DNA of 64,000 nucleotides from Shigella phage Sf22. Below, one piece after another: positions 1-60,638 of the stretch (its first letter is position 1; each line of letters opens with the position of its first letter). The stretch lies in sequence record MF158045; one strand, 5' to 3'. The translations under genes were made by a program, and so were the position numbers. Under the pieces are notes generated by a model. That model was not told the origin of the DNA. It saw only the letters and a program-made list of their open reading frames with translations, and ran no database searches.

Positions 1-2
1 GT

Positions 3-833: not shown

Positions 834-841
834 GAGGTATT

Positions 842-1957: not shown

Positions 1958-1962
1958 ATTGA

Positions 1963-1986
1963 GGGAGCCTTCGGGTTCCCTTTTTC
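1963..1986 (+). terminator. Hairpin with UUCG loop plus T-run between genes 35 and 36
   Basis: GGGAGCC-TTCG-GGTTCCC followed by TTTTTC. Confidence 0.55.
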
Positions 1987-1988
1987 TA

Positions 1989-1996
1989 TATAAATA
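1989..1996 (+). promoter_or_regulatory. T4-type late promoter (TATAAATA) for gene 36
   Basis: Exact TATAAATA about 24 nt upstream of the gene 36 ATG. Confidence 0.7.
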
Positions 1997-2019
1997 CTAT
2001 TAAAATAAAGGGGCATACA

Positions 2020-2679: not shown

Positions 2680-2687
2680 GAGGACTT

Positions 2688-6377: not shown

Positions 6378-6379
6378 AA

Positions 6380-6407
6380 GAGGGCTTCGGCCCTCTAAGG
6401 ATTTTTA
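6380..6407 (+). terminator. Hairpin with UUCG loop between genes 37 and 38
   Basis: AGAGGGC-TTCG-GCCCTCT then T-rich run; may act as attenuator or RNA stability element. Confidence 0.5.
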
Positions 6408-7202
6408 ATGGCAATTGTAGGTGTTCCTGGCTGGATTGGTGAATCTGCCGTGAATGAAACTGGACAGCGTTGGATGGATGCTGCGATGAGAGCAGTTCGT
6501 GTTTCAGTTCCTGGTTGGATGAGCTCAATGGCTGGGCAATCTAAAGAAGTATATTATAGCATTGGTGCTAGCAATTCTTACAATAAAGACACACTAATAA
6601 ATTATCTCAAATCTCAAGGTAGTACTCCTGTTGTTGTTACTATTACTGGTAACCTAGTTTCTTCATCTGCAAGGCAACCTTGCTTAGATTTTCCTAGCTC
6701 ATTAACTAATGCTTATGTAACGCTTATTATAAATGGCGGTGTAACAGTATATGGTCGCGGAGGACGCGGCGCGCAAGCGGGAAACCAGGCGGGTGAAGCT
6801 GGTGGTACTGCAATTAACAATGGTATAGGTACTCGTCTACGAATCACTAACAATGGAGCAATCGCTGGCGGTGGTGGTGGTGGCGGCGCCCAATCAACTG
6901 ATAATGGATGGGGAGGTAAATATGTTTCTGGCGGCGGCGGCGGACGTCCTTTCGGAGCTGGTGGTAATAATGGAGCAAAAGCTCCGGGTGCATCAGCATC
7001 TTTAACATCTCCAGGCGCAGGTGGAAAAATGTATTCCGGCGTTGGATACTACGGTGGTGACGGTGGTAATGTTGGTGAACGAGGTAAGGATGCGGTTAGA
7101 TTGAACGGCTATTCGAACTCACCTGGCGCAGCAGGTAAAGCTGTTACTGGTAACGCACCAACATGGACTAAGGTTGGTACAATATATGGTTCAAGAGTAT
7201 AA
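6408..7202 (+). CDS. 38: Receptor-recognising tail fiber adhesin gp38 (T2-type, glycine-rich motifs)
   Basis: 264 aa with several poly-Gly blocks (GGGGGGGAQ, GGGGG) separated by variable segments; immediately downstream of gp37. Confidence 0.85.
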   Translation: MAIVGVPGWIGESAVNETGQRWMDAAMRAVRVSVPGWMSSMAGQSKEVYYSIGASNSYNKDTLINYLKSQGSTPVVVTITGNLVSSSARQPCLDFPSSLTNAYVTLIINGGVTVYGRGGRGAQAGNQAGEAGGTAINNGIGTRLRITNNGAIAGGGGGGGAQSTDNGWGGKYVSGGGGGRPFGAGGNNGAKAPGASASLTSPGAGGKMYSGVGYYGGDGGNVGERGKDAVRLNGYSNSPGAAGKAVTGNAPTWTKVGTIYGSRV

Positions 7203-7208
7203 TTTTTG

Positions 7209-7216
7209 AATAAATA
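7209..7216 (+). promoter_or_regulatory. Possible late-promoter-like box (AATAAATA) upstream of t
   Basis: One mismatch to TATAAATA, about 19 nt before the t ATG. Confidence 0.3.
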
Positions 7217-7234
7217 TCCTTAAAAGGAGGGTCT

Positions 7235-7891
7235 ATGGCAGCACCTAGAATATCATTTTCGCCCTCTGATATTCTATTTGGTGTTCTAGATCGCTTGTTC
7301 AAAGATAACGCTACCGGGAAAGTTCTTGCTTCCCGGGTAGCTGTCGTAATTCTTTTATTTATGATGGCGATTGTTTGGTATAGGGGAGATAGTTTCTTTG
7401 AGTACTATAAGCAATCAAAGTATGAAACATACAGTGAAATTATTGAAAAGGAAAGAAATGCACGCTTTGAATCTGTCGCCCTGGAACAACTCCAGATAGT
7501 TCATATATCATCTGAGGCAGACTTTAGTGCGGTGTATTCTTTCCGCCCTAAAAACTTAAACTATTTTGTTGATATTATAGCATACGAAGGAAGATTACCT
7601 TCAACAATAACTGAAAAATCACTTGGAGGATATCCTGTTGATAAAACTATGGATGAATATACAGTTCATTTAAATGGACGTCATTATTATTCTGACTCAA
7701 AATTTGCTTTTTTACCAACTAAAAAGCCTACTCCCGAAATAAACTACATGTACAGTTGTCCATATTTTAATTTGGATAATATCTATGCTGGAACGATAAC
7801 AATGTACTGGTATAGAAATGATCATATAAGTAATGACCGCCTTGAATCAATATGTGCCCAGGCGGCCAGAATATTAGGAAGGGCTAAATAA
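7235..7891 (+). CDS. t: Holin T (lysis, lysis-inhibition sensor)
   Basis: 218 aa; N-terminus MAAPRISFSPSDILFGVLDRLFKDNATGKV and one N-proximal TMD match T4 holin as I recall it; strong SD AAGGAGG. Confidence 0.95.
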   Translation: MAAPRISFSPSDILFGVLDRLFKDNATGKVLASRVAVVILLFMMAIVWYRGDSFFEYYKQSKYETYSEIIEKERNARFESVALEQLQIVHISSEADFSAVYSFRPKNLNYFVDIIAYEGRLPSTITEKSLGGYPVDKTMDEYTVHLNGRHYYSDSKFAFLPTKKPTPEINYMYSCPYFNLDNIYAGTITMYWYRNDHISNDRLESICAQAARILGRAK

Positions 7892-18727: not shown

Positions 18728-18756
18728 TTATACCACATCCTTGTGGTAAAGTAAAC
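18728..18756 (-). promoter_or_regulatory. T4-type early promoter upstream of rIIA.1
   Basis: Minus strand GTTTAC, 17 nt, TGgTATAAT (perfect extended -10). Confidence 0.75.
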
Positions 18757-20576
18757 TACTGGCTCATCCATTCTTTACGAAGGTCAGCATTATCTCCCAT
18801 GAGCATTTCAAAAAGCTCTTTCCAATTCTCAGGAAGTTTAACAACATCATATACTGGATTTTGAATCATCTCACGATATTCAGATTTTTCCAAAGAGCCA
18901 AGTCCCTTAATATAACGGATGCTATGTTTAGGTAGAGCATCTTTGGCACTCTCATATTCAGCGACTGTATAAAACCATTCTTGTTTTTTACCGACCTGAG
19001 CGATGATTACAGGAGTTTTGACAAAGCGAATTCGTCCTTGCTCAAACAATTCTGGCCAATTACTAAAAAATCCGAGCAGAGAAGGATAAATGCTTCCTAA
19101 ACCATCATGGTCAGCATCAGTCATAATAGCAATATTATGATAATTCAAGTTTTCAGCTTTTTCACCGAGAACTAGACCAGTGATTGCGCAAATATCAAAT
19201 AATTCTTTGTTTTTAAGCATATCTGCATAAGACATACCCCAACTGTTGAGAACTTTACCACGCAATGGATAACCACCGTGAAGTTCTTTATCACGAACAT
19301 CAATAAGATATCCGATAGCCGAATCACCCTCAGTCAAGAAAAGAGTAGTATCAGCATCTTTACCGCAAAGATTCGCTTTGATATGTTTATGAACTTTAGC
19401 TTTAGAAGCCTTTTTAGCTGCTTTAGTTTCAGCTGCTTTTTCTGCTGCCAATTTACGGGCCAAGGCAGCTTCAATAATCGGCATTAAAATTGCTTCATTA
19501 TTTAGAATAGCGCGTGAAATCTTTTTAGCATCAAGCTGAATATGACTACGAATTTCGCCAAATGGAGAAGTCAAACGCTCTTTAGTTTGAGAATCAAATC
19601 GCATGTTTTTCATATCACGGACAAACATAACGATAGTCAAACATTCTTTGACACGTGCTTTAGTTACATCAATTTTGAACTTACGTTTGATTTGTGGAAT
19701 AAGGTCTTCACAAATATCATCCATAACACAGTCAATGTGATGGCCACCATTCTTAGTGTGAATGTTATTCACATAAGTTAATTGGCGAAATCCATCCGGT
19801 GAACGACCAACCGCAATAGAACAATTTTCTTGTTCTTGAACAATAGCATGTTCATCATACTGTCGTGCATATTTCTTAAAATTGCCCTGAACCTTTTTAC
19901 CATTAAAGGTAAATTGAATATCAGGATAAACTACTGCAAGTGTCTGGAGACGATCCAGTGTAATGTCAAGATAAACTTGGGACAGCTCATTAGTTTCAAA
20001 TGACATAAAATCTGGAATGAAAGTAACACGAGTTCCTTTCCATTTTCCAGGAATAGTTTCCCAGGATTTATTTTCCATGCCATTTGAACAACGAACTACA
20101 ATATTATTTTGACCATCGCCAGTTTCACCGACAAACATCACAGAAAAAATGTTAGTTAAACTAGAACCAACACCATTCATACCACCGGTGACACGTTCTT
20201 TATCATCACCAAAGTTACCACCCGCTTTTGGAATAGTCCAAGCAGCAACTGGACCAGGAATTTCTTCACCGGTAGGTGTTTTAACCATCGCTTGTGGAAT
20301 ACCACGACCGTTATCTTCAACTGTTACTTGATTGTTTTTGATAGTAACATTAATTTTATTTGCGAATTTAAACTTAGTACGAATACCTTCATCTACTGAG
20401 TTATCGATAATTTCATCAATAAGCTTAACAAGACCAGGTACATACTGAACACTTTCCCATTTACCAAACAGAAAGCGCTCATGCATTTCATTAGCAGAAG
20501 AGCCAATATACATGCCGCTACGCTTTTTGATATGTTCAATATCGCTCAGAATTTTAATTTCATTCTTAATCATCAC
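18756..20576 (-). CDS. 39: DNA topoisomerase II large (ATPase) subunit, uninterrupted gp39/gp60 equivalent
   Basis: 606 aa, GHKL ATPase plus Toprim-like regions in one frame; T4 splits this into gp39 and gp60. Confidence 0.9.
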   Translation of the reverse strand: MMIKNEIKILSDIEHIKKRSGMYIGSSANEMHERFLFGKWESVQYVPGLVKLIDEIIDNSVDEGIRTKFKFANKINVTIKNNQVTVEDNGRGIPQAMVKTPTGEEIPGPVAAWTIPKAGGNFGDDKERVTGGMNGVGSSLTNIFSVMFVGETGDGQNNIVVRCSNGMENKSWETIPGKWKGTRVTFIPDFMSFETNELSQVYLDITLDRLQTLAVVYPDIQFTFNGKKVQGNFKKYARQYDEHAIVQEQENCSIAVGRSPDGFRQLTYVNNIHTKNGGHHIDCVMDDICEDLIPQIKRKFKIDVTKARVKECLTIVMFVRDMKNMRFDSQTKERLTSPFGEIRSHIQLDAKKISRAILNNEAILMPIIEAALARKLAAEKAAETKAAKKASKAKVHKHIKANLCGKDADTTLFLTEGDSAIGYLIDVRDKELHGGYPLRGKVLNSWGMSYADMLKNKELFDICAITGLVLGEKAENLNYHNIAIMTDADHDGLGSIYPSLLGFFSNWPELFEQGRIRFVKTPVIIAQVGKKQEWFYTVAEYESAKDALPKHSIRYIKGLGSLEKSEYREMIQNPVYDVVKLPENWKELFEMLMGDNADLRKEWMSQ

Positions 20577-20642: not shown

Positions 20643-20912
20643 TTATTTAAAACGAATAGTTGAATCCTTAAAGAACAGCCCAGAACATACTGTTCCTTCT
20701 ACTTTCTGCCCAGTAGGTCCAACAGCACGAAATCCAGTATGTTGGAAATCATTTTCAGAGCAACCAAACCAATTATATCCAGTGATTTCAATATTAGTAA
20801 AACCGCTTGATGACAAAATTTTGGTTGCATTATCAGCATCAGTACATCCTGCTAAAGACACTGCTAATACTAATGCTGCGATAGAACGATTAATATATTT
20901 CATAATTTTCAC
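20643..20912 (-). CDS. Putative lipoprotein (89 aa)
   Basis: Signal peptide with lipobox LAGC (AALVLAVSLAGCTD). Confidence 0.55.
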   Translation of the reverse strand: MKIMKYINRSIAALVLAVSLAGCTDADNATKILSSSGFTNIEITGYNWFGCSENDFQHTGFRAVGPTGQKVEGTVCSGLFFKDSTIRFK

Positions 20913-21280
20913 TTAAATTTAATGGCTTGAAGAAGACTAATAATTCTCAAGCGACTTCTTTCATCTTTAACTGTAAAAGAAAGAGGGTCACCAGATTTCA
21001 TAGTAATAGTACATTCAAAATCAAAATCTTCGGAAACTTCTTTGAAGAAGTCAAATTCTTCATCATAAATTAGAACATTACTCTGACAACTATGAAGAAT
21101 TTTTCCATCATTTCCGGATGCTGTACTAATCATTGTAACATTATGACCTTTCATATCTTCAACGATAAATTCGCTTGTAGATATTACAGCATTAATAGAA
21201 CCATTCCTATAAATAGCAGACATTAGATATTTCTTTTCTTCGCCTTTGCGAATACGATACTTCTTACCGATTTTAAACAT
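20909..21280 (-). CDS. Hypothetical protein (123 aa)
   Basis: ORF track. Confidence 0.5.
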   Translation of the reverse strand: MFKIGKKYRIRKGEEKKYLMSAIYRNGSINAVISTSEFIVEDMKGHNVTMISTASGNDGKILHSCQSNVLIYDEEFDFFKEVSEDFDFECTITMKSGDPLSFTVKDERSRLRIISLLQAIKFK

Positions 21281-25003: not shown

Positions 25004-25241
25004 AAAGATAGCTAATTTCGCCTAAAACGTAATCATTGATTGTAACAGTTTTCACTTCACCACAAAAGAATTCTAACGCAATTAAATCTCGTTCAATTTC
25101 TTCTAATTGAAGCATCAACTTACTAGATTCAATTTTTACAGTTTCACGATTTTTACCATGAGCAATTTCATAAATTTCGCTAACTTTATCCTGAAGAAGA
25201 TAAAACTGATCTTTAGTTATTTCCACGAATAGCTTCCTCAA
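24981..25241 (-). CDS. Hypothetical protein (86 aa), member of tandem paralog trio
   Basis: ORF track; similarity to neighbours. Confidence 0.5.
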   Translation of the reverse strand: MRKLFVEITKDQFYLLQDKVSEIYEIAHGKNRETVKIESSKLMLQLEEIERDLIALEFFCGEVKTVTINDYVLGEISYLYEAIIND

Positions 25242-25473
25242 ATTTAATTAGTAATTTACAGACACTTTCATCTAGTGTAATTACCGTATCTGTATTACTG
25301 TGATATGATTGTTTTTCAATTCGTTTAATTGCTAATATAGTATCACTTATAAGATAAAGCTTATGAAGGAGCTCAGCTCCTGTTACCATAACATTAAGAT
25401 TATCTTGCTTATTAGTATGCTTCCTTATACCATCTATTAGACGATTTAAATATTTTGAATTGATGTTAATCAT
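25213..25473 (-). CDS. Hypothetical protein (86 aa), probable third paralog
   Basis: ORF track; same size class and weaker similarity. Confidence 0.45.
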   Translation of the reverse strand: MININSKYLNRLIDGIRKHTNKQDNLNVMVTGAELLHKLYLISDTILAIKRIEKQSYHSNTDTVITLDESVCKLLIKFEEAIRGNN

Positions 25474-31827: not shown

Positions 31828-32037
31828 TTAAATTACATGATTATTTATAATAAATTCTCGCGGAACGTTAAAATACCCGATTTTAGTTAATATAACAACA
31901 TCACCGTTAATAATTACCGGAGAATAATCTTCTGGAGCATTAAATTTCCAATGGGCTCTAATATTATATCCATCAGAACCAAATGCTCGAGTAGCCGGTC
32001 TCCCGGCTTTTTGCCACGCGTAGAAATCAAATTTCAT
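31828..32037 (-). CDS. Hypothetical protein (69 aa)
   Basis: ORF track. Confidence 0.45.
   Translation of the reverse strand: MKFDFYAWQKAGRPATRAFGSDGYNIRAHWKFNAPEDYSPVIINGDVVILTKIGYFNVPREFIINNHVI
31842..31849 (-). promoter_or_regulatory. T4-type late promoter (TATAAATA) for soc
   Basis: Exact TATAAATA on minus strand about 30 nt upstream of the soc ATG. Confidence 0.7.
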
Positions 32038-32228
32038 TTTGAATGCTCTATAATTAATTTTAAAGCTTCTTCACTGACAAAAATTTCGTCAGGACCTTCT
32101 ATAACTTCAACCATACGAAGTTGATTAGTTAAGAGCTCACATACGAGCTCCTTGTTATAATCTTTAAATAGCTGGTCAATACGTTTCTTGTGGGCTTTCT
32201 TAAGCTGGCGTTTATTTAAACGAGCCAT
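32034..32228 (-). CDS. Hypothetical protein (64 aa)
   Basis: ORF track; stop/start overlaps on both sides. Confidence 0.45.
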   Translation of the reverse strand: MARLNKRQLKKAHKKRIDQLFKDYNKELVCELLTNQLRMVEVIEGPDEIFVSEEALKLIIEHSK

Positions 32229-32746: not shown

Positions 32747-32817
32747 TATTTTTCCTTTCAATTCATGGGTTAGTAGATTAATTATACAATAAATATATAA
32801 AGCAATAAGGAGGACAT

Positions 32818-33018
32818 ATGGTACAAAAATTAATGGCACTTGTTAATGCCATAAAAGGTAATAAAAAACGTATAGCTTTTACTATTTCTGCTATGGTAGG
32901 AATTTTACTCTGGAACTTTATTCTATCACCTGTTGCAATTGCGCATGGTATTAATATTCCAGTAGTTACTCTTGATACATTTGTAGATTTAGCATTTGCT
33001 TTAGTTGGGTTGATTTAA
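32818..33018 (+). CDS. Small membrane protein (66 aa) on plus strand
   Basis: Strong SD AAGGAGG 6 nt before ATG; two predicted hydrophobic helices; only plus-strand ORF with a good RBS in the early region. Confidence 0.5.
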   Translation: MVQKLMALVNAIKGNKKRIAFTISAMVGILLWNFILSPVAIAHGINIPVVTLDTFVDLAFALVGLI

Positions 33019-34211: not shown

Positions 34212-34256
34212 TTAACCTCTATTCATAAAAGCATTAAAAATTTGGTCATCAATAGA
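34211..34256. repeat. 46-bp direct repeat, copy 1 (3-prime end of 61.1-like ORF)
   Basis: ATTAACCTCTATTCATAAAAGCATTAAAAATTTGGTCATCAATAGA, one mismatch to the copy at 34569-34614. Confidence 0.9.
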
Positions 34257-34568
34257 TGGAATAGCAACCTTTTCGGCATCATTTAGCAAATCATTAATTT
34301 CATCAGATAGCATAACACATGTGCCTTTATTTCCTGTAATTGTTACTGCACAATTACGAACGTTTTCTTTATCAAATTTTAGGTTAATATTTTCGTAGTG
34401 AAAATCCTTTAATGCCGAATATATCTTTAAAATGAAATTGTCTTTTACTACAATAAACCCAACTTCACTATTAAAACGTGGTTCATGGAAACTGTAATAA
34501 ACCTTTTCATCTATAAAATCGTATGAAATTTTTTCCATTTTTAAATATGAAAATTCAGAACTATACAT
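34212..34568 (-). CDS. Hypothetical protein (118 aa), 61.1-like
   Basis: ORF track; C-terminus SIDDQIFNAFMNRG shared with the next ORF. Confidence 0.5.
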   Translation of the reverse strand: MYSSEFSYLKMEKISYDFIDEKVYYSFHEPRFNSEVGFIVVKDNFILKIYSALKDFHYENINLKFDKENVRNCAVTITGNKGTCVMLSDEINDLLNDAEKVAIPSIDDQIFNAFMNRG

Positions 34569-34614
34569 ATTAACCTTTATTCATAAAAGCATTAAAAATT
34601 TGGTCATCAATAGA
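34569..34614. repeat. 46-bp direct repeat, copy 2 (3-prime end of 61.2-like ORF)
   Basis: Near-identical to 34211-34256. Confidence 0.9.
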
Positions 34615-35196
34615 AACATTTACTTTAGACTGTTTTTCAGATGGCAATTCATATCCACATATTACAATTTTATGATCAATATTAAAATACACAGAAGCAA
34701 TATGATTAATGATATTTTCAGTGAAGTCTAAATCGACATCAATATCTTTTTGACCAAAGCCCAAAGGATAAATAATGCGAGTAATTCGATTATCTTTAAC
34801 AAAGATTCCACCGACATACTCTGTACTGCGTTTAAAGTCTACACGCCGACGAAATGAAAAATATTCAGGCTCTCTATGAGCTCGGCTCATAGGACACAAC
34901 GAGTAACTAGAATAAGAGATGTCAAATCCTACACCTTCGATATGAGCCAAAGTGTTATGATTAAACCAATTATAATCGTACGCCAAATCCATTAGATTAT
35001 AATATGTAAAAGGCACCGGATTAACATCATTAGTCACAAGCATGTAATTAGCAACTGCTATAATTTCATTGTTTTTAACGAATACAAACCGTGATTGATG
35101 CGAATGACCTGGACCCGCGTTTTCACGATTAATGATATAACACTGGGCACCTTTATATTTGTATGTATCTTTGCACTTGTGCATTTGATAGAGCAT
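34570..35196 (-). CDS. Hypothetical protein (208 aa), 61.2-like
   Basis: ORF track; C-terminus SIDDQIFNAFMNKG shared with the previous ORF. Confidence 0.55.
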   Translation of the reverse strand: MLYQMHKCKDTYKYKGAQCYIINRENAGPGHSHQSRFVFVKNNEIIAVANYMLVTNDVNPVPFTYYNLMDLAYDYNWFNHNTLAHIEGVGFDISYSSYSLCPMSRAHREPEYFSFRRRVDFKRSTEYVGGIFVKDNRITRIIYPLGFGQKDIDVDLDFTENIINHIASVYFNIDHKIVICGYELPSEKQSKVNVSIDDQIFNAFMNKG

Positions 35197-37486: not shown

Positions 37487-37849
37487 TTAAAAGAATTTAA
37501 ACTTTTTCTTTGACCTTTTATTAAATGCATCTTGTAGTTGCATTGTAATACATTTTTCTACATGAGGAGCTAACTCAGCTTTTCTTTCTTGGTCAAGAAC
37601 AGCAAAGTCCATTACAACCTTTCCATCAACCCAATCCAGTTTAGTTACATACACTATATGTGTAGAACCATCTTCTAGTTTAATGACAATCTCCTGGATA
37701 ACATTTTCCATGGCAGATTTAATTATCTTAAGAGATTCATTAAAAAGACGTTCTTTTCTTTCTTCTTCCCCCTCCGAAGAGGGGGATTCATCGATAATTT
37801 CTAGATCTAAATCTAAATCATCTTTATTCATTAAATTCTTCCATATCAC
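37487..37849 (-). CDS. 40: gp40-like protein (head vertex assembly chaperone) by position
   Basis: 120 aa between 41 and uvsX. Confidence 0.6.
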   Translation of the reverse strand: MIWKNLMNKDDLDLDLEIIDESPSSEGEEERKERLFNESLKIIKSAMENVIQEIVIKLEDGSTHIVYVTKLDWVDGKVVMDFAVLDQERKAELAPHVEKCITMQLQDAFNKRSKKKFKFF

Positions 37850-39005
37850 TTAACTGCTCGAGGTCAGTTTCTAAATCAGCTGCTGATTTACTTTTACTTT
37901 CTGGAGATTTAAATTTTTCAACCTTTGAGTTAATCAATTCATCAACTTCCGCTTCAACAATTTCATTACTATCAATAGCACCTAACTGATAAGCACGCTT
38001 AATAGCATCTCGGAATGGTTGATGCTTAAATAAAGGACCCCAGAATGTAGTGCAGTTAGTATCTTTTGCACGCCAAGATTTTTCTTCGCGAATCATCTCG
38101 CCAGTTTCTTCGTCAAGAAATTCACGCGCATACCAACCATTTTTAGGTTTTACTACAAATCCTAATTCTAGAGCCATATCTAACAATCCAGAATAAGGAT
38201 CGATACCACCGTCAAATTTAACATCAATAAAGAATTTACTTTTTTCTTTAACGGTACGAGATTTTTCTACATTTAGAACAAATTGATACCCCTGAAGATC
38301 AGAACCATCTTTAATCTGACGCTTACCGATAATGAATACAGTATCAGCCGAATACATTACGCCTGTACCACCTGTCATCACGGTTTTACTAAACATTTCA
38401 ATTGTTTCAATTGTATGGTTAACCGCAACACATGGAATATTTTTAATGCTAAAATAAGGAGTAACAATACGGAATAATGACTTCAGTGATTTAGCACGAG
38501 TCATATCTGCCACAGATTTTTCATTCAAGGCATCTTCAGTTTCTTTCTTAGAAGCCATATTACCGATTGAGTCGATGAATACAATAACTTTTTCACCGCG
38601 CTCAATAGCTTCAAGCTGATTCACCATATCAATTTTCAGCTGTTCAACTGACTGGATTGGCGTATGAATTACTCGTTCCGGGTCAACTCCCATGGATCGC
38701 AAATAAGCTGGAGTAATACCAAATTCGCTATCATAGAATAGACAAACCGCGTCAGGATATTTGTTCAAATACGCCGCAACCATAGTCAAAGACATATTTG
38801 ATTTAAAGTGTTTAGAAGGACCTGCAAAAATAGTTAAACCAGACTGCATGCCGCCATCAATCGCACCAGAAATAGCAATATTAAGCATTGGGATTTTTGT
38901 ACGGATTACATCCTTTTCATTAAAGAATTTAGATGTAGTCAGTTCAGCAGTCATTTTAGAAGTGGAAGCTTTAATCAAACGGGATTTTAAATCTGCAATA
39001 GACAT
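37824..39005 (-). CDS. uvsX: Recombinase UvsX (RecA-like)
   Basis: 393 aa; RecA-fold nucleotide-binding loop (GPSKHFKS); synteny. Confidence 0.95.
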   Translation of the reverse strand: MSIADLKSRLIKASTSKMTAELTTSKFFNEKDVIRTKIPMLNIAISGAIDGGMQSGLTIFAGPSKHFKSNMSLTMVAAYLNKYPDAVCLFYDSEFGITPAYLRSMGVDPERVIHTPIQSVEQLKIDMVNQLEAIERGEKVIVFIDSIGNMASKKETEDALNEKSVADMTRAKSLKSLFRIVTPYFSIKNIPCVAVNHTIETIEMFSKTVMTGGTGVMYSADTVFIIGKRQIKDGSDLQGYQFVLNVEKSRTVKEKSKFFIDVKFDGGIDPYSGLLDMALELGFVVKPKNGWYAREFLDEETGEMIREEKSWRAKDTNCTTFWGPLFKHQPFRDAIKRAYQLGAIDSNEIVEAEVDELINSKVEKFKSPESKSKSAADLETDLEQLSDMEEFNE

Positions 39006-39082
39006 TCATTTTTTCCATAGGCATCATTATATTTTCCTCACTGGTTAAAGATAGAGTAATTATAACACAATAAATTTAGGCA

Positions 39083-39931
39083 TTAATCAACTGCTATTGG
39101 ATGAATAGCATTAAACTTATGAAATGCTTCTGATTTTTCTTTACGCGAAACACACATGCGAAGAACCTTTAATGGCTCGTCTTCTTCACCCAACGATTTT
39201 CGTTTTTCAATATTAGAAGTTTTCCAACGAGCTTGCTCTGGAAACTCTCTATTGATTTGCTCAAGCGCTCTATTATGTTTAGAATTACTACGAATTGAAC
39301 TGCACCCGCCAGGAGCTTGTGCTTTTCCAGATACAACCAGATATTTGAACAAGGCCAAATGCGGATAACCTTGATTAATTAAATTGAGAAATGCATACAT
39401 ATCTTCGCACAAATCAATTTTTCCATACCCAATTTGTTCTGTCGTAAGTTTTCCGAGGTCATACCATGTATTCGTGAATCCATATGAATTTTCACGATAA
39501 TTACCCCAAGATGAAGTAATTTTAAAAATAGGTAGACGAGCATGGCCATGATAATACCCACAATCCATGGCATCCTCAACATATTGAATCAATTCATAGA
39601 ACTGTTCACGGGTTAATTGATTGACTTTATCTACACAACGACGGTCATCTCTTTTTCGCATTGAACTCATACGAATAGTAGTATCATCGTCAATCATCCA
39701 GATTCGTTGACCTGTATACATATCAGTAATTGCTTTACGAGTACCGGCAATTCCGTTTACATCATCAGGAATAGTTATAATTTTAGCTCTAGACCCATAA
39801 GCGTCATGATAAGCTTTTTCTTCATGTTCACGCACTACAATATGGGGTTCATAATCAGTCGGAAACATATTAAGGGCAGAAACTGCCCCTACACGCTGAT
39901 AACTTGGAATTACGAATTGAATCATTTCCAC
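39083..39931 (-). CDS. Putative glycosyltransferase at the beta-gt locus (candidate beta-glucosyl-HMC alpha-glucosyltransferase of T2/T6 type)
   Basis: 282 aa; DxD-like motif IWMIDDDTTI; occupies the uvsX-42 interval but does not resemble T4 beta-gt (351 aa). Confidence 0.5.
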   Translation of the reverse strand: MEMIQFVIPSYQRVGAVSALNMFPTDYEPHIVVREHEEKAYHDAYGSRAKIITIPDDVNGIAGTRKAITDMYTGQRIWMIDDDTTIRMSSMRKRDDRRCVDKVNQLTREQFYELIQYVEDAMDCGYYHGHARLPIFKITSSWGNYRENSYGFTNTWYDLGKLTTEQIGYGKIDLCEDMYAFLNLINQGYPHLALFKYLVVSGKAQAPGGCSSIRSNSKHNRALEQINREFPEQARWKTSNIEKRKSLGEEDEPLKVLRMCVSRKEKSEAFHKFNAIHPIAVD

Positions 39932-41456: not shown

Positions 41457-41705
41457 TCAAATGCAAGTAGTAATTACTCCAGTAGTGCTTATGCAGGTAT
41501 TACCCATTTGCACACCTAAAGATCCATTTGTATTCACATGAAGATTATCATCAATTTTAACTGATATTTTACCATTAGTGTGAATAACGGTGCTAGATTC
41601 AATCACAGGTTGAGTATCATTTTCAACACTAACAAATGGAACTGCTGCTAATGCAACTAAACAAACTGCTAAGCATCCCATAACAATTTTCATTTTATTC
41701 TCCAA
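41457..41705 (-). CDS. Putative secreted/membrane protein (82 aa)
   Basis: N-terminal signal-like segment MKIVMGCLAVCLVALAAVPFV; early promoter upstream. Confidence 0.5.
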   Translation of the reverse strand: MENKMKIVMGCLAVCLVALAAVPFVSVENDTQPVIESSTVIHTNGKISVKIDDNLHVNTNGSLGVQMGNTCISTTGVITTCI

Positions 41706-41873: not shown

Positions 41874-44570
41874 TCAGCCAAACAGGAAGTCTAACGAAGC
41901 TTTTTCTTCATAGTCCATACCAGCCGATTCACACATACCCGCAAGCGGTTTAACAAACGATTTTTGGAACAAAGTTGAGTAGTCAATCCAAGACAGTACG
42001 TCAGAACGAATTTCTTTTGGAAGTTCTGTGCCCGACGGCCAAGCAATACACTTGTCACCAAATGGATTTCCTTCACGTAATGGAAGAACCATTACTTTAT
42101 TTCCATCCAAAATTGGAGCTACACCCAGACCATTAACAGCTCGACGATAAGTTAGCACACCACGAATATGGAACGGGCATTTAAATCCTGGCCAACCTTT
42201 ATCATCATATTTCGCTATATCGTTCGCAGTTTTTACTTCAGCAATAACTTTATAGTCAAGTTGACGATATTCTTTCTCGAAGTTCTTGTAATATTCTTGG
42301 ACAGACTCTTCACCTTCCTGAAGAATACGACGAATACTTTCTTCGAGAGCTTCTTGCACTGCTTTTGGTGTTGAACTCTGCTGAGTTTCCATACCCATGA
42401 TTTTTAGATGCGGTTCAGCAAATCGCTTATCTTCCATATCATAAACGTTCAGAGCATAACGCTTTTTCGCTTTCCAAAATCCGCCAACGCCTTTTGAACC
42501 AAGTGGAGGGCAAGAAATAGCTTCACGGTCCATATGCATCAGATGCTCGCGGTTATTCATATAATCACATAACTCACGATATGCAACATCAATCATAGGT
42601 TCCATCTTTTTCTTACCGAACTGATTCATGAATTCAACTAAATCGTTCTGCTCTTTGAATCGGTCAAGACCAACTTTTTCAATAACTTTATCTACACAAA
42701 CATATACCGAATCAGTATCACCTGCTGCGATGAAATCTTCGCCATTAGTTCCACATACTTTATTCAGATACTCATTAATTTTACGAGCAATCCACTGAAT
42801 ACCGACTTGACCAAAAATTGTAATAGCAGTAGCATTTCGCAAATCATAGTAGCGGAAATGAATATTACCAAGAGCACCGTAAAGGCTGTTAATAAGAATT
42901 TTACGGTTCAGCTGATTTGTATTAGCAAGTGTAGCCGCTTTTTCACATTCTTCAATCAAACTATTGAGAACAGATTCAGTATAATTCGATAGTTCATTTA
43001 AGAAATCATCACTGAACTTAACATATCGTTCAACTTCAGGTTTAGTTGAACAAGACCCTGCGCCTTTCATAATAATCTTTTTAATAGCTTCGGCATTCAT
43101 TTCTTCAGCGAACATTTTCTTTTTCCAATCTTTACGCTGGAAAAATACTTTAGCGATTTCCTTTGGAATGATACCTTCTTGATGCTTATCATACATCCAT
43201 CCATTCGGAGAACAAGAATATTCATCACTCGGTTTAGGAGCTGTTCCTGCGATATATTCATGAATTGGATGAACTTTAAACTGCCCACGAATAGTCTCAG
43301 GACTAATGTTAACCTGACGAATAATGCTCGGATACAGAGACGTCAAGTCAAAACTCATAATATATCGACGAGCAATTGGTTTAGGTTCAAACACAAATGC
43401 ACCCGGAAAACTCTGTTTAACATGCGAACCTTGTTGAGGAATAACCTTATGTTCACCTTTCAATGAGTTAAAAATAATAGCATCCCAGGTTTTAATAGGA
43501 CTCATTACACCGGAAAAAGGCATTTTAGCGTAATAAGACATACTTAAAACTAGATCGATAAACCCGCGAATTTTATCAATTGCTTGAACTGATTCTACGT
43601 CAATGATGTTATAACTAATGTATCGTTGATGATTAGTCTCACGAAGTTTATTAATAGGACCGTCGTATGGTAATTTACCTTTTTTGGTTTCATGTTGAGC
43701 AACTGATTCCAAAGAGAATGACGGCAAATTAGTAAAAGCGAATTTCTTGTACAAATCTAAATAATCAAGAATAGATACGCCATCAATAGAATAAATTTCT
43801 TTGCTACCGTACATATTTTGAATTAATTTAGATTTTACTCGACCGATTGGAGAGAAGCGTTTCATACTACGTTCACCGAGAACCATTTTAACGCGATTCA
43901 TGATATACGGAACGTCAAATCCCTCAATATTCCAACCGGTAAAAATAGCAGGTCGTTTCTGTTCCCAAAGATTAATATATTCCATGAGCATATCACGCTC
44001 ATTATCGAATGGCATATAAATTACTCGGTCAAGAATTTCTTGAGGAACTTCATCACCACCTTCACAGTCAAGCTTAGCAGCTAACTTTGCATCCCATTTT
44101 GATACTGAACCATACATTGAATTCAAAAGGTCGAAAACATAAAAACGATCATCAATTGAATCGTAATGAGTGATAGCATCAATTTCATATTCAGCTTTCA
44201 TTGGGTCAGGAAATTTATCACCAGTAACCTCAATGTCACAGTTAGCTACACGAACAAATTTTCGGTCATAAACAATTTCTGAACCGTATGTATCACTGAT
44301 ATAAGCGAGTTTAAAATCGTTCATACCGAGAGCTTCGAGACCGATGTCTTCCATTCGTTTCATCCAATCTCGAGCATCTTTCATTGATGAAAATTTTTGA
44401 GGAGCGCAATTTTTACCATAGATGTCTTTGTACTTTGACTCTTCCTTACAATGCCTAAACATAGTCGGAAGATATTCTACTTCACGAGTACGTTCCTTTC
44501 CGTTTTCATCAATATAACGTTCAACAATGTTATTTCCGACTGTTTCGATAGAGATATAAAATTCTTTCAT
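41874..44570 (-). CDS. 43: DNA polymerase gp43 (family B)
   Basis: 898 aa (T4 gp43 898 aa); polymerase motifs SLYGALG and AAGDTDSVYV. Confidence 0.97.
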   Translation of the reverse strand: MKEFYISIETVGNNIVERYIDENGKERTREVEYLPTMFRHCKEESKYKDIYGKNCAPQKFSSMKDARDWMKRMEDIGLEALGMNDFKLAYISDTYGSEIVYDRKFVRVANCDIEVTGDKFPDPMKAEYEIDAITHYDSIDDRFYVFDLLNSMYGSVSKWDAKLAAKLDCEGGDEVPQEILDRVIYMPFDNERDMLMEYINLWEQKRPAIFTGWNIEGFDVPYIMNRVKMVLGERSMKRFSPIGRVKSKLIQNMYGSKEIYSIDGVSILDYLDLYKKFAFTNLPSFSLESVAQHETKKGKLPYDGPINKLRETNHQRYISYNIIDVESVQAIDKIRGFIDLVLSMSYYAKMPFSGVMSPIKTWDAIIFNSLKGEHKVIPQQGSHVKQSFPGAFVFEPKPIARRYIMSFDLTSLYPSIIRQVNISPETIRGQFKVHPIHEYIAGTAPKPSDEYSCSPNGWMYDKHQEGIIPKEIAKVFFQRKDWKKKMFAEEMNAEAIKKIIMKGAGSCSTKPEVERYVKFSDDFLNELSNYTESVLNSLIEECEKAATLANTNQLNRKILINSLYGALGNIHFRYYDLRNATAITIFGQVGIQWIARKINEYLNKVCGTNGEDFIAAGDTDSVYVCVDKVIEKVGLDRFKEQNDLVEFMNQFGKKKMEPMIDVAYRELCDYMNNREHLMHMDREAISCPPLGSKGVGGFWKAKKRYALNVYDMEDKRFAEPHLKIMGMETQQSSTPKAVQEALEESIRRILQEGEESVQEYYKNFEKEYRQLDYKVIAEVKTANDIAKYDDKGWPGFKCPFHIRGVLTYRRAVNGLGVAPILDGNKVMVLPLREGNPFGDKCIAWPSGTELPKEIRSDVLSWIDYSTLFQKSFVKPLAGMCESAGMDYEEKASLDFLFG

Positions 44571-44648: not shown

Positions 44649-45017
44649 TTAATTACCAATCGTATATTTAGGAACGAGTTTCCATTCATGTTTTTGTTTA
44701 AAAGAAATAACTCGGAAGTTATTAGTTAAATCTTTCATAAAAGTTCTTTGACCAGGAACGATTTCAATCAGTCCCCAATCTTCTAACAACCATGCAATCG
44801 AATCACGACGAACTTCATCTTCTTCTGTCATTTCAACTTGACGGCCATCCATACGAAGCATTTCTTTAAAATGAACGATATAGTATAGTCCTTTTTTCTG
44901 AAGAATATGACAGGACTGATACAGAACTTTATCTTTATTATTAGCAATTCCCATACGAGTCAAAGTTTCTTTTACTTTCAGAAAATCTTCAGGTTTTTTA
45001 AGAGTAATTTCAATCAT
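44649..45017 (-). CDS. regA: Translational repressor RegA
   Basis: 122 aa (T4 RegA 122 aa); synteny 43-regA-62. Confidence 0.9.
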   Translation of the reverse strand: MIEITLKKPEDFLKVKETLTRMGIANNKDKVLYQSCHILQKKGLYYIVHFKEMLRMDGRQVEMTEEDEVRRDSIAWLLEDWGLIEIVPGQRTFMKDLTNNFRVISFKQKHEWKLVPKYTIGN

Positions 45018-45018
45018 T

Positions 45019-45582
45019 TTACCATTCCAATGCTAGTTTTTTGAGTTGTTTCTGTTCTTTTACGTTCTTAGTCACTTCTTTCAAAAAATCATCCGTGACT
45101 AATCCTTTAAGTTCTTTTAATACTAAAGGTAGTTTTCCATTTTTAGTAAGAATTGATTTATAGTTAATTGCATCATTTGTATTAACTTGATACCGCTTAG
45201 CAAGTAACTTAATAATCAATACTTCGGTGGAATCTTCGACCAGTTTTGCCCATTTACCATATCTTTTACCACGAGGAACTGCAGCCATCAGATAATTAAA
45301 ATGGGCTTCATCACTTAAACCTGATCCAATTAAATTCATAGCATATACAGCTGGCATGCACTCTGGAAATTGTGATAATGCATTTTCGACCATGAATTTT
45401 GAATAATCTTTTTGAGCAATAGAGCATTTAGTTTTATTATTAATAGCTCCAATTATTTCAAAAAATTCATTTTCAGCTTTTTCTTTAAAAGAATCAGCAG
45501 CGGATTGGACAGCTGTCCAATCTTTTGAATACCAAGCAACTTGATGCTCGTTTAATTGAATATCATCTTCAAATAAGCTCAT
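45019..45582 (-). CDS. 62: Clamp loader small subunit gp62
   Basis: 187 aa; synteny. Confidence 0.9.
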
Positions 45583-45583
45583 A

Positions 45584-46558
45584 TCACTTCCACTGCATTT
45601 CGCATGCTAATTGAATGAAAAGATAAACTAAATGTAATTCAGTGTTAGCTGCAATTCCATGATACTGATTATTTTCACCAACAATTTCGTACATACGAAT
45701 AATACTTTGTGGAGTTACACGTGAATAGATTTCTTCGGCAAGTTTACCCACGAACCACGAATAATCAGCTGCATATTTTGGTGCTAAAGCTCTGAGTTGT
45801 TTAACATCTTTATTTTTGAGAGACTCAAGAACATCATCAATAGCACCACGATCGTTAGTAACCAGTGATAAAATACCAGCATCCAAAACACCTTTAGATG
45901 AATAACTATCGAGCTCGCCAATAGTTTTACGAAAATCAGGAAAATTCTTTTTAACCAAAGCTGCTACAACTTTCATATCAGCTATAGCAATACCTTCATG
46001 TTTACAGATTTCAGTCAATCGACGAATCATCTGCTTCATCATTTCAATTTTATCTTCATCGGTCGGTTGACCGAACGTAATAACTCGGCAGCGTGACTGA
46101 AGTGGTTTAATAATACCATCAATATTGTTAGCAGTAATAATAATACTACAGTTCGAACTATAAGCTTCCATAAAGGAACGAAGATGTCGCTGAGACTCTG
46201 CTAGCCCTGAACGGTCAAATTCATCAATAACGATTACTTTTTGACGACCATCAAATGAAGCTGCACTAGCAAAATTAGTCAAAGGACCACGAACGAAATC
46301 AATTTTACAGTCTGATCCATTCACAAACATCATATCAGCATTTACATCATGACACAATGCTTTTGCTACAGTTGTTTTACCTGTTCCTGGAGAAGGAGAA
46401 TGAAGAATAATATGTGGAATTTTACCTTTACTTGTAATAGATTTAAAGGTTTCTTTATCAAAGGCGGGAAGAATACATTCATCGATAGTAGATGGACGAT
46501 ATTTCTGTTCAAGAATGTGTTCTTTTTCATTTACGGTAATCATAATTTCCTCATTCAA
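45584..46558 (-). CDS. 44: Clamp loader ATPase subunit gp44 (AAA+)
   Basis: 324 aa; Walker [11 protein letters not shown]. Confidence 0.95.
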
Positions 46559-51303: not shown

Positions 51304-52504
51304 ATTTTGTAATAATGTCAAACTGTTCTTTAAAGCAGAAGCTTGAATCTTGATGCTGATACAAAAATTCATATGCTTTTTCTCGCTCACGGTCATAAAG
51401 AGCTCGGTCAGATGACAGTTCTTTAATACGCTCGAATGTTGATTCCATATCATTTTCATCAAACCAAACGATACCGCTATCATGCGAAATTAGCGGAGTA
51501 TTATCAACACGGAATTTTAAATTTTCGCCAGTAGATTTCCAAAATACCGGAATTGTTCCACATGCACCAAGCTCGAGATGAGTATATTCTAAAGAGCGCT
51601 GTAGATATTTTTTATCCAACTTACTCAGCTGATAACCAAAACCGGATTTACTCATACGTTCAAGCATTTCGCTATTTACATAACGGTCAAGAATTTGCGT
51701 TGGCAAATTAGGAGCAATTTTAATTTGGTCTACTTGATGAAGACGATAATACTCGTATGGAATTCCTTTTTCTTTAATAGGAATGAACGCTGGAGAACGT
51801 TCCAGACCTTCCATAATAGTACTTAGTCCTGCAGGTTTAAGATGTTTTTCATGAAAATCAAACATCTGATAAAAACCTTTCCATGTAGTCGTACGACCAA
51901 TCCAACGGTTGATATTCATGTTAATTTCAGAAACATCTTTCCAGTAAGTTGACCGAACCTTCGCAATATCCATAGGAGGCTGAAAGTTATATACTGTCGG
52001 TGCTTCTTCAATATCATCAAACAGAGAAACAGTTTCTGGATACCATTCTTTCATCAGAACTTTATTAAAATCACCATTATCAGAATGGCTAAAAATAACA
52101 TCAGCTCGACGAACAGTTTCTTCTAATCCCAAATTTCGACGCAAAGAAAGAGAAGAATGGTCATGCTGATAAACTACAACACGAACCGAAGGTTTAATGT
52201 TATCAATAATTTTTTTATAGTTATTAATAGTGTCTTCTTCAACCGAAGTAGCAGGAACTGAATTGATAATTAGAATATCACAATCATTTACCAGCTTAAG
52301 TGTTTTATCATATTCTTTTGCCAATAAAACCGGAATTGAAAATGATTTATAATCATGCGCGCAATTACGAGTAAATGATTTATCTTTAGCATAAACCAAA
52401 GTCACTTCATGACCATTTTTAATAAACCAATCACGTTGCTCGAGTGAGAATTTTGTTACACCACAACCTTCAAGACCTCGAGCCATAAAAATACATACTT
52501 TCAT
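51302..52504 (-). CDS. a-gt: Alpha-glucosyltransferase (HMC-DNA alpha-glucosylation)
   Basis: 400 aa; N-terminus CIFMARGLEGCGVTKFSLEQRDWFIKNGHEV matches T4 AGT as recalled. Confidence 0.9.
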   Translation of the reverse strand: MKVCIFMARGLEGCGVTKFSLEQRDWFIKNGHEVTLVYAKDKSFTRNCAHDYKSFSIPVLLAKEYDKTLKLVNDCDILIINSVPATSVEEDTINNYKKIIDNIKPSVRVVVYQHDHSSLSLRRNLGLEETVRRADVIFSHSDNGDFNKVLMKEWYPETVSLFDDIEEAPTVYNFQPPMDIAKVRSTYWKDVSEINMNINRWIGRTTTWKGFYQMFDFHEKHLKPAGLSTIMEGLERSPAFIPIKEKGIPYEYYRLHQVDQIKIAPNLPTQILDRYVNSEMLERMSKSGFGYQLSKLDKKYLQRSLEYTHLELGACGTIPVFWKSTGENLKFRVDNTPLISHDSGIVWFDENDMESTFERIKELSSDRALYDREREKAYEFLYQHQDSSFCFKEQFDIITK

Positions 52505-52528
52505 TTAATATCCTCTTTGTTTTGGTTT

Positions 52529-54076: not shown

Positions 54077-54346
54077 TTATCTAAGTAAGCAGTATGCTTG
54101 GAATACTTTCTCCATCATCTTTTTAAATTCATGAATATCTATATAATGACTAGTTAAATCAGCATGATATAAAAAGTCTAAAAACTTTTCATGTGTGCTA
54201 GCATATTCACTTTCATTTAATTCAGAAACATGGCTTTCCCAATATCCAACACCAGTCTTATTTGGGAAAAATGAAATTTTCATGTATTGGTCAACATAGA
54301 AAATGCCATAATTTTCAATAGTAATAGAAATATTAATAAATTTCAT
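54077..54346 (-). CDS. Hypothetical protein (89 aa)
   Basis: ORF track. Confidence 0.5.
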   Translation of the reverse strand: MKFINISITIENYGIFYVDQYMKISFFPNKTGVGYWESHVSELNESEYASTHEKFLDFLYHADLTSHYIDIHEFKKMMEKVFQAYCLLR

Positions 54347-56544: not shown

Positions 56545-57015
56545 TTAATCATGTGTCCACACCCCATCGGTATTTGACCAAAGTCGCTGATTATCTGATC
56601 CTCGCCACAGCTTTTTGGTCGGAAGATTTTTCTCATACTTCCCATCAATAATAACATCAACATATTTAAGCATTTCTAGTTGTTTAATATCTTCAAACTT
56701 ATATCCTGTCCACAACCAAATGCTTTTACTGGGATAAAGATTTTTTACTGTTTGAACGATGCAATGAATAACATCTCGGTTATCAGGATAGAGAGGGTCT
56801 CCTCCAGTTATAGTTAATCCTTCTATATAATCATTATTCAAACATTCAATTAATTGCTCTAGTGTTTCACCAGTGAATGGAATACCATTTCTAGCATTCC
56901 ATGTTGATTTATTATAACACCCTTCACATTTATGCAAACAACCTGTAACGAAAAGAACGACCCTGCAACCAGGGCCATTCACAAAATCACAGGGATAAAA
57001 TCTATCGTAATTCAT
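56545..57015 (-). CDS. nrdG: Anaerobic ribonucleotide reductase activating protein NrdG (radical SAM)
   Basis: 156 aa; radical SAM cluster motif CLHKCEGC; overlaps nrdD stop. Confidence 0.9.
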   Translation of the reverse strand: MNYDRFYPCDFVNGPGCRVVLFVTGCLHKCEGCYNKSTWNARNGIPFTGETLEQLIECLNNDYIEGLTITGGDPLYPDNRDVIHCIVQTVKNLYPSKSIWLWTGYKFEDIKQLEMLKYVDVIIDGKYEKNLPTKKLWRGSDNQRLWSNTDGVWTHD

Positions 57016-58829
57016 TGGTGTTTAACCCTATGCATGATTTCTTTATTTTTACCGAGATTAAATCCGCGCTCGTTCGGATTTCCCAAATAACCACATGTTC
57101 TTCTTATGGTATTCATCTTTTTAGGATCAGTTTCTCCACAAATAGAACAAACAAATCCGTTTTCAGTAGGAGTCATTTCATGGGTACTTCCACATGTAAA
57201 ACATTTATCTACTGGCATATTAACACCAAAATAATCTAAATGTTGTGCAGCATAATCCCATACGGCCTCAAGACCTTTTAAGTTATTTTTCATATCAGGA
57301 AGTTCAACATAAGAAATGTGACCACCTGTCGCAATGAAATGATATGGCGCTTCACGAGAAATCTTTTCAAACGGAGTAATATTTTCTTCTACTGAAACAT
57401 GGAAACTGTTAGTGTACCAGCCTTTATCGGTAACATCTTTTACACTTCCATATTTTTCTGTATCAAGTTTACAGAAGCGATAACAAAGGTTTTCAGCAGG
57501 AGTCGAATATAAACTAAAAGCAAATCCAGTTCTTTCAGTCCACTGTTTAAGATGAGCATTCATTTTAGTTAAAATTTCTCGTCCAATATCACGACCGACA
57601 AGAATATTCAATTCGTGAATACCAATGTATCCTAAAGACACTGAACTTCTACCGTTTTTAAATAACTCAATTATGTCGTCATCAGGTTTAAGACGAACCC
57701 CGAATGCACCTTCTTGGTAAAGAATAGGAGCAACAGTAGCTTTAACTCCTTTTAAGGAACTAATTCTACACATCAAAGCTTCAAAACATAAATCCATTCG
57801 TTCATTGAATAATTCAGCAAATTTCTGTTCATTGAACTGTGTTCCAATATAAGAATCTAACGCGATGCGAGGAAGATTCAGTGTTACAACACCAAGATTA
57901 TTACGTCCATCAAGAATTTCATTACCAGTCGAATCTTTCCATACGCTCAAGAAACTACGGCATCCCATCGGAGAAACAGGAACAGATGAACCAGTGATAG
58001 CTTTATTGTTCTTAGCTGAAATAATATCAGGATACATCCTTTTGCTTGCACACTCTAGAGCAAGTTGCTTAATGTCGTAATTCGGATCGTCTTTATAAAG
58101 ATTAACGCCTTCTTCAACGAACATAACAAGCTTAGGGAAAATAGGAGTTATTCCATCACGACCAAGACCTTTAATACGATTTTTCAGAATTGCTTTCTGA
58201 ATCATTCGTTCAGTCCAGTCAGTTCCCGTACCAAATGTAATTGTTACAAAAGGCGTTTGTCCGTTTGAACTAAAGAGAGTATTTACTTCATATTCATAAG
58301 CTTGGAATGCATCGTATACGTCTTTTTCTGTTTTAGATTGAGCATAATTCAACGCATCAGCGATTTGCCATTTTTCTGCATCCTCAATATGTTTTGCATA
58401 GGTGCGTTTAACATAAGGAGAAAGTACTTTATCTACATTCGCAAAAGTCGTTCCGCCATATTGATGGGAAGCAACTTGCGCAGTAATTTGTGCCATAATT
58501 GCAGTAGCAACGCCAATTGATTTAGGAGTTTCAATCTGTGCATTACCAAGCTTAAATCCGTTCTCAAGCATTCCTTTTAAATCTACTAAACAGCAATTAG
58601 TAAATGGAAGAGCAGGGGAATAATCAATATCATGGAAATGAATAATTCCGCTTTCATGCGCTTTCATAATAAAAGACGGGACCATATTTTTGGCAATGTG
58701 TTTAGACACAATACCAGCCATAAGGTCCCGTTGAGTTGGAAAAACACGAGAATCTTTATTAGCATTCTCGTTTAAAAGGTCTTTATTAGTTTTATGAATC
58801 AATCCTTCAATTTCTTTTTCAATTGTCAT
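57012..58829 (-). CDS. nrdD: Anaerobic ribonucleoside-triphosphate reductase NrdD (uninterrupted)
   Basis: 605 aa; C-terminal glycyl-radical motif RTCGYLG and zinc ribbon CFTCG...CSICG; single continuous frame. Confidence 0.95.
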   Translation of the reverse strand: MTIEKEIEGLIHKTNKDLLNENANKDSRVFPTQRDLMAGIVSKHIAKNMVPSFIMKAHESGIIHFHDIDYSPALPFTNCCLVDLKGMLENGFKLGNAQIETPKSIGVATAIMAQITAQVASHQYGGTTFANVDKVLSPYVKRTYAKHIEDAEKWQIADALNYAQSKTEKDVYDAFQAYEYEVNTLFSSNGQTPFVTITFGTGTDWTERMIQKAILKNRIKGLGRDGITPIFPKLVMFVEEGVNLYKDDPNYDIKQLALECASKRMYPDIISAKNNKAITGSSVPVSPMGCRSFLSVWKDSTGNEILDGRNNLGVVTLNLPRIALDSYIGTQFNEQKFAELFNERMDLCFEALMCRISSLKGVKATVAPILYQEGAFGVRLKPDDDIIELFKNGRSSVSLGYIGIHELNILVGRDIGREILTKMNAHLKQWTERTGFAFSLYSTPAENLCYRFCKLDTEKYGSVKDVTDKGWYTNSFHVSVEENITPFEKISREAPYHFIATGGHISYVELPDMKNNLKGLEAVWDYAAQHLDYFGVNMPVDKCFTCGSTHEMTPTENGFVCSICGETDPKKMNTIRRTCGYLGNPNERGFNLGKNKEIMHRVKHQ

Positions 58830-59299
58830 TTTAAACTCTTTCTAAGCTGCTTCTTAAATGAAGCTATTAATTGTGTTTTAGTGTCAGATTCATTATATTC
58901 AAATCCTCTTTGAAGCATCTCAGCCATCATTTCCTCTTTTCCTAAACGAGAAAATTCCTTTGATTTATCTCCAACGAAGTTAGGGTGAATATTATTTTGG
59001 GTGTAATCGGATTTTAAATAAGTAAGTAAATTTTCTAGCCATTCAAGATAATCAACGCCTTGTCCCTTTAAGCCAGAACGATTAAATTTATGCTTCATTT
59101 GACCTTCCGCAGCATTGCAGAGATTACAGAGCAATCCACGTACCTTTCCTGCTTTTGGTCCATTTAATTCATGGTCATGGTCAAGGTGATTAGCTTGAAC
59201 ATCAGGATTTAGTTCTCGTTGGCAAATTAAGCATTTACCGTTTTGTGCATTATAAAATTTTTGTTTTTCTTCTTTATATAATTTGCCAGTCAATAACAT
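58826..59299 (-). CDS. 49: Recombination endonuclease VII gp49
   Basis: 157 aa; MLLTGKLYKEEKQKF...CLICQ...HLDHDH...LCNLCN matches T4 EndoVII as recalled. Confidence 0.9.
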   Translation of the reverse strand: MLLTGKLYKEEKQKFYNAQNGKCLICQRELNPDVQANHLDHDHELNGPKAGKVRGLLCNLCNAAEGQMKHKFNRSGLKGQGVDYLEWLENLLTYLKSDYTQNNIHPNFVGDKSKEFSRLGKEEMMAEMLQRGFEYNESDTKTQLIASFKKQLRKSLK

Positions 59300-60239: not shown

Positions 60240-60422
60240 TTTTCACCAATTAATTTCGCAATTTATTAAGTTCTTCATCATCAATCCAGGATTCTAGTCC
60301 TGATGGCAGGGCACATTCAATTTCCCAAAGAAGTTCTTCAATTTTCTGAAGACGTTCTAGTTCTTCGGCTGGAATAGCAACCATTGACGGAGCTCGTGAT
60401 ACATTAATATCGTAAATCATAT

Positions 60423-60638
60423 TTACCCCAATTTAACCATACAATCGCCGTATTTCCACTTAGAAATAGACTTTTCACCATTAGAATAATAAACTTCGAG
60501 TTTAGCACGATTATTTTTAATTTGAATAACCTTTGCTGTCATCAAAGTTCCATACCCATAATAAACTGCAACTTCATCACCTACATATACCGCGCTTCCA
60601 CGATAATCATGGATATAATCAGTTCCTTCGAACATCAT
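60423..60638 (-). CDS. Hypothetical protein (71 aa)
   Basis: ORF track; 4-nt overlap with nrdC. Confidence 0.5.
   Translation of the reverse strand: MMFEGTDYIHDYRGSAVYVGDEVAVYYGYGTLMTAKVIQIKNNRAKLEVYYSNGEKSISKWKYGDCMVKLG

Follow-up and report, generated by a model that had tools for sequence, protein, structure and literature searches.

Intron-free nrdD in a segment of Shigella phage Sf22 without homing-endonuclease insertions

The nrdD gene of Shigella phage Sf22 is very probably the common intron-free allele of T2/IME09-like Tequatrovirus phages, situated in a segment of replication and nucleotide-metabolism genes that lacks homing-endonuclease insertions. The stretch of DNA analysed here (hereafter the window) covers 64 kb of the roughly 167-kb genome (record MF158045), and neither a homing endonuclease, whole or fragmentary, nor a group I intron was found in it. 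This endonuclease-free layout appears to be the majority layout of the group, to which the 15 endonucleases of T4 would be the exception. The configuration of the window is thus already known and ordinary.

The window consists of T4-like phage DNA (Tequatrovirus) with a G+C content of about 35%. It opens with the end of tail-fibre gene 34, and tail-fibre genes, among them T2-type versions of 37 and 38, occupy the plus strand at 1-7890. The minus strand carries, in order, t, asiA, motA, 52, rIIB, rIIA, 39, dexA, dda, modA/B and soc, followed by 56, 61, 41, uvsX, 42, 43, 45, 44/62, 46, 47 and a-gt, and finally 55, nrdH, nrdG, nrdD, 49, pin and nrdC, up to nrdC.4/5. The nearest database records (GiZh, KRT47, Kha5h and NR1) are 95-99% identical and stand in a mosaic relationship to the window. 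The Shigella phage KRT47 (MN781580, Tequatrovirus ime09) has an nrdD of 1818 nt that is 100% identical to ours, and its gene order matches that of the window in the fused gene 39, soc.1/soc.2, the lack of dam and the continuous nrdD; both have an 843-nt glycosyltransferase gene after uvsX, and neither has mobB or mobC. However, the 6 kb surrounding nrdD are only 98.3% identical between the two and the window has an additional 118-aa ORF (34212-34568), the window being a mosaic of several relatives. The similarity of this ORF to AdfA (anti-DarT factor, T4 61.2) is confined to the C-terminal half of that protein; the ORF directly adjoins a full-length AdfA gene (34570-35196) and is present at that position in neither T4 nor KRT47. 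The dam methyltransferase gene, which T4 carries between genes 56 and 61, is missing at 32786-33015, T4 Dam gave no tblastn match in the window, and KRT47 likewise lacks dam at this place. We considered the missing dam and the missing T4 beta-gt as signs of an unusual phage and rejected this, since both are shared with KRT47 and are therefore lineage traits. Further, T4 49.3 has its place taken at 60250-60638 by a pair of short ORFs of 56 and 71 aa; the 56-aa product matches a PHROG labelled as antitoxin and, weakly, the T7 gp5.9 RecBCD-inhibitor family.

The large subunit of the anaerobic (class III) ribonucleotide reductase is encoded by nrdD at 57012-58829 on the minus strand, as a single 605-aa ORF with an ATG start and without an intron. 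Its product contains the full-length NRDD catalytic domain (Pfam PF13597, positions 1-562 of 562, E = 1e-170) and a Gly_radical domain (Pfam, E = 2.5e-25), and the translation displays the glycyl-radical motif IRRTCGYLG (RxCGY) near the C-terminus as well as a C-terminal four-cysteine zinc site, CFTCG...CSICG (CxxC...CxxC). With the NrdG activase encoded next to it, catalytic domain, glycyl-radical motif, zinc site and activase, by which a class III NrdD is recognised, were all found. Aligned to the spliced nrdD of T4, the gene has the same length of 1818 nt and 97.7% nucleotide identity (42 differences), and 603 of the 605 amino acids are identical, with V65F and V338A as the only differences. 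The initial annotation had described nrdD as one continuous 605-aa frame, and the ORF, the Pfam matches and the alignment with spliced T4 nrdD all agree with this description.

The neighbours on both sides are tightly joined to nrdD. Gene 49 upstream (58826-59299, minus strand) encodes endonuclease VII, a Holliday-junction resolvase with 156 of 157 amino acids identical to T4, and nrdG downstream (56545-57015, minus strand) encodes the activase, with matches to Fer4_12 and Radical_SAM in Pfam and CLHKCEGC (CxxxCxxC) in its translation. Both overlap nrdD by 4 nt in ATGA-type fashion, gene 49 with its stop at the nrdD start and nrdG with its start at the nrdD stop. Given these overlaps, neither splicing nor a mobile gene lying in between would come into play, and NrdD would be translated directly as one 605-aa polypeptide from an unspliced mRNA.

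The nrdD/nrdG overlap is also the empty site of T4 mobC (T4 42917-43534, absent here). In T4, mobC is flanked by a 14-nt direct repeat, ATGAATTATGAYAG (T4 42900-42925 and 43525-43550), and MobC and NrdG share the start MNYDRIY; the window has a single copy of the repeat, located at the overlap. This suggests that mobC may have been inserted by recombination at the 14-nt microhomology. Identity to T4 nrdG is only 45-85% over the first ~300 nt but 100% over the last 170 nt, and the NrdG protein is 80% identical overall versus 99.7% for NrdD. The sharp mosaic boundary beside the place of mobC in T4 could mark a MobC target or a conversion tract.

The T4 nrdD gene (sunY) has the same neighbours, with 49 upstream and nrdG downstream, but differs from the window in three respects, namely a 1033-nt group IA intron with I-TevII, an exon tract linked to this intron, and mobC between nrdD and nrdG. 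We placed the T4 splice junction by the group I rule (a U at the end of exon 1, a G at the end of the intron), which locates the intron at 44815-45847 of NC_000866, after coding nt 538. The corresponding insertion site in the window lies unoccupied at 58291-58292 on the minus strand, after gene nt 538 and equivalent to T4 NC_000866 44814|45848; comparison with T4 by blastn showed that the 1033 nt are absent, with zero leftover bases. A search of the window against Rfam at the gathering threshold returned no RNA family, the T4 control locus giving Intron_gpI with 105 bits. The same insertion site in nrdD of phage 215Ecol030PP carries a 479-nt group I intron (record positions 1371-1849, Rfam 71 bits) that is ~73% identical to the core of the T4 intron, whose endonuclease ORF has decayed to a mere remnant, and which is followed by a downstream exon flank of a third variant.

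Beside the empty site, a 40-nt tract (58254-58293, minus strand; gene nt 537-576) concentrates nine of the 42 nucleotide differences from T4, at -1, +8, +11, +14, +15, +17, +20, +35 and +38 relative to the insertion site. All nine are silent, and such a concentration within 40 nt was reached in one of 200,000 permutations (p about 5e-6). T2 (MH751506) likewise has a continuous nrdD of 1818 nt adjoining nrdG and gene 49; between gene nt 430 and 653 it matches the window at every base, among them the nine that set the window apart from T4, and it differs at 38 scattered nucleotides elsewhere in the gene. Because the sequence of the window at the cluster is that of T2, the nine differences are no peculiarity of Sf22, and this silent T2-type variant at the empty site is common to the window and hundreds of intron-free relatives. 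When the spliced T4 junction was used as a query, 610 records with a continuous gene were found with a best identity of 96.5%, and the T4-type junction was present in none of them. In the phage collection searched, the T4-type flank was strictly tied to the intron, occurring only in intron-carrying phages. Two of these, EC128 and fPS-2, whose backgrounds are different, carry the T4 variant from -1 to +20; at +35 both show the window/T2 base, as does EC128 at +38.

The cut made by I-TevII reportedly falls 13-15 nt downstream of the intron position, a region that the 40-nt tract presumably covers. Repair then has to take the stretch between cut and intron from the donor, with variable end points of the tract beyond it. 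Such co-conversion of flanking exons is a documented hallmark of homing by double-strand-break repair (PMC2988022, section 5). The T4-type bases would accordingly represent an exon tract copied along with the intron during double-strand-break repair, which would explain why they are seen only in phages that carry it. Judged from these alignments, the cluster appears to belong to the alleles that bear the intron, as a co-conversion tract whose ends vary, rather than to the window. The mixture of flank types in EC128 and fPS-2 further indicates that T2-type alleles like that of Sf22 probably served as natural recipients, and the window allele would be expected to act as a homing site, being cut and converted in a co-infection with an intron-carrying relative.

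The same cluster could also be read as evolved immunity, in which the nine silent substitutions make the site a poor substrate for I-TevII and thereby keep the intron rare in the group, an explanation that we regard as improbable. The substitutions do fall within a 40-nt stretch to which the reported cleavage positions (+14 and +15) belong, and the T4-type target occurs in no intron-free record. Yet the obligatory co-conversion between insertion and cleavage sites explains this linkage without any resistance, and the combination of T4-type proximal with window/T2-type distal bases in EC128 and fPS-2 is what would be expected from homing into a T2-type allele. Moreover, crosses of T4 x T2 standardly use T2, identical to the window at the site, as the recipient (PMC2790892, PMC2988022). 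It is similarly improbable that the T2-type site has been selected as refractory to I-TevII, so that population-wide immunity rather than lack of exposure would hold the intron at a few percent of Tequatroviruses.

The intron is one of six selfish insertions in the matching region of T4, the others being the mobA/gene-60 cassette, segF, segA, mobB and mobC. Synteny by blastn showed all six to be cleanly missing from the window, with short junctions or unrelated small genes instead. The large topoisomerase subunit is encoded by an undivided gene (39 fused with 60, 606 aa) at 18756-20576 on the minus strand, as seen from blastn synteny; 51 nt at 19105-19155 stand where T4 has a 1.1-kb cassette (T4 2806-3911) with the gene-60 bypass, 60.1 and mobA, and neither the 50-nt translational bypass of T4 nor 60.1 nor the mobA remnant is present, an arrangement shared with KRT47. 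At the place of T4 segF, two small ORFs of 69 and 64 aa (31828-32228, minus strand) correspond to soc.1 and soc.2 of T2-type phages. T4 segA and beta-gt are replaced by a short spacer after uvsX and a 282-aa glycosyltransferase gene (39083-39931, the whole region being 39006-39931 on the minus strand). The product of this gene matches weakly to a TET-associated glycosyltransferase (TAGT), its KRT47 counterpart is annotated as a putative beta-gt, and it may be the second glucosyltransferase of the T2/T6 type. The mobB place downstream of a-gt (52495-52520, minus strand) has ~24 nt instead of T4 37817-38679. At the mobC place nrdD and nrdG overlap directly by 4 nt, and at the place of the nrdD intron nothing is inserted.

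Four independent searches of the window converged on the same negative result. The 15 T4 endonucleases, compared by tblastn with the six-frame translation of the window, reached a best E-value of 0.028, inside gene 47 (gp49 as a control: 9e-106), and GIY-YIG queries reached 0.27. Custom HMMs trained on the Mob and Seg proteins of T4 were searched against the 1642 six-frame segments with a length of 20 aa or more; the best E-values in the window were 0.11 for the Seg and 1.7 for the Mob models. As a positive control, every Mob and Seg protein of T4, down to the 37-aa remnant of MobA, was recovered by these HMMs (E-values of 1e-10 to 1e-126). Pfam, applied to all stop-to-stop segments with a minimum length of 40 aa (coding strand) or 60 aa (opposite strand), found no HNH, GIY-YIG, SegE_GIY-YIG, NUMOD, LAGLIDADG, Hint or intein family in the window. 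The sole domain of the HNH/His-Me-finger superfamily was the Endonuclease_7 domain of gp49; we rejected it as a homing endonuclease, as it belongs to the resolvase endonuclease VII, nearly identical to that of T4. The ten ORFs without a T4 counterpart, scanned singly against Pfam (E <= 1) and PHROGs, matched conserved T4-like families of small accessory proteins and no endonuclease family.

The sensitivity of Pfam was gauged with known endonucleases. Scanned singly, nine of ten T4 endonucleases matched endonuclease families, SegF going unrecognised; for SegF-like genes, the exclusion came from tblastn and from the Seg HMM, which includes SegF. In a spike-in with 950-aa concatenates, MobB, MobE, SegB and I-TevII were found, and MobD and the 37-aa MobA remnant were lost (2 of 6). 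Since Pfam on concatenated ORFs loses weak HNH matches, the negative result rests on tblastn, custom HMMs, Pfam and synteny jointly. A very divergent type of endonuclease could escape Pfam, a gap that is closed only by synteny and the single-ORF scans. These limits for SegF, MobD and the MobA remnant, together with several small ORFs without known function in the window, give some room to the idea that one such ORF is a homing endonuclease of a family absent from T4 or weakly modelled in Pfam. We nevertheless consider this exceedingly unlikely, as the window aligns to non-endonuclease genes of T4 except for the tail-fibre genes and ~3.5 kb of short inserts, the insert ORFs (among them 20909-21280, 25213-25473, 34212-34568, 41457-41705, 54077-54346 and 60250-60638) encode products of 56-164 aa that fall into conserved accessory families of T4-like phages and show no nuclease motif, and the careful annotation of KRT47 contains none. 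The initial annotation had reported no recognisable GIY-YIG or intact HNH ORF where T4 carries mob and seg genes, and had proposed a profile search for GIY-YIG, HNH and LAGLIDADG domains; that search found none in the window, and tblastn, HMMs and synteny likewise bear the statement out.

The same annotation had also called the segment unusually free of selfish elements, which did not hold up. About 690 phage records have an nrdD at least 90% identical to that of the window; the T4 nrdD intron is present in 25 records, many of them T4 isolates, and the other T4 elements occur in 32 (mobC), 26 (mobB), 26 (segA), 50 (segF) and 41 records (mobA/60.1 cassette), many of these being copies of T4 itself. 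Set against ~690 relatives, elements found in 25-50 records make their absence commonplace: at each of the six sites the state of the window is that of more than 90% of relatives. Likewise, among the best 30 matches to the nrdH-nrdC region, an endonuclease is listed in only one, and the annotation of KRT47, which has the same layout, lists no homing endonuclease from rIIA to nrdC.5. The impression of unusual emptiness fails because T4 was taken as the norm. Published censuses show T4 to be an outlier in endonuclease content (PMC2988022, section 15; PMC2993671, Table 5). Whole-genome counts are 15 for T4, 11 for T6, 8 for RB3 and 4 for RB32, two each for RB14, RB15 and RB18, one for T2 and none for RB26 and RB69 (Petrov et al., Table 5, PMC2993671). 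RB26, T2, RB14, RB15 and RB18 thus resemble the window in combining few or no endonuclease genes with T4-type gene order (PMC2993671, Table 5), their counts referring to whole genomes and ours to 64 kb of Sf22, whose remaining DNA may carry endonucleases. The neighbourhood of nrdD is an endonuclease hotspot in some phages and is empty in the window; different annotated homing endonucleases lie immediately downstream of nrdD in EC128 (record 3606-3633) and immediately upstream in fPS-2 (record 1-772).

The empty sites might alternatively stem from secondary loss, in which a lineage that once had the intron and free-standing endonucleases was later cleared of them by precise deletion. A cycle of invasion, decay and loss is the accepted model (PMC2988022), and the decaying intron at the same site in 215Ecol030PP would fit it. 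However, remnants were found at none of the six sites, the flanks in the window are T2-type and not of the intron-linked T4 type, and the empty state prevails in more than 90% of relatives at every site, which makes such a history very unlikely for Sf22. The common intron-free allele in its endonuclease-free setting remains our preferred reading.

Both the empty sites and the intron-linked exon bases are already part of the literature on intron homing in T-even phages, and the significance of the present case is small. It illustrates how poorly T4 serves as a reference for the load of mobile elements; in T-even-type phages, an nrdD without an intron and a replication module without endonucleases are the rule. 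The window offers a clean example of six empty sites, in comparison with which the exon bases beside the T4 nrdD intron appear to have been inherited together with the intron.
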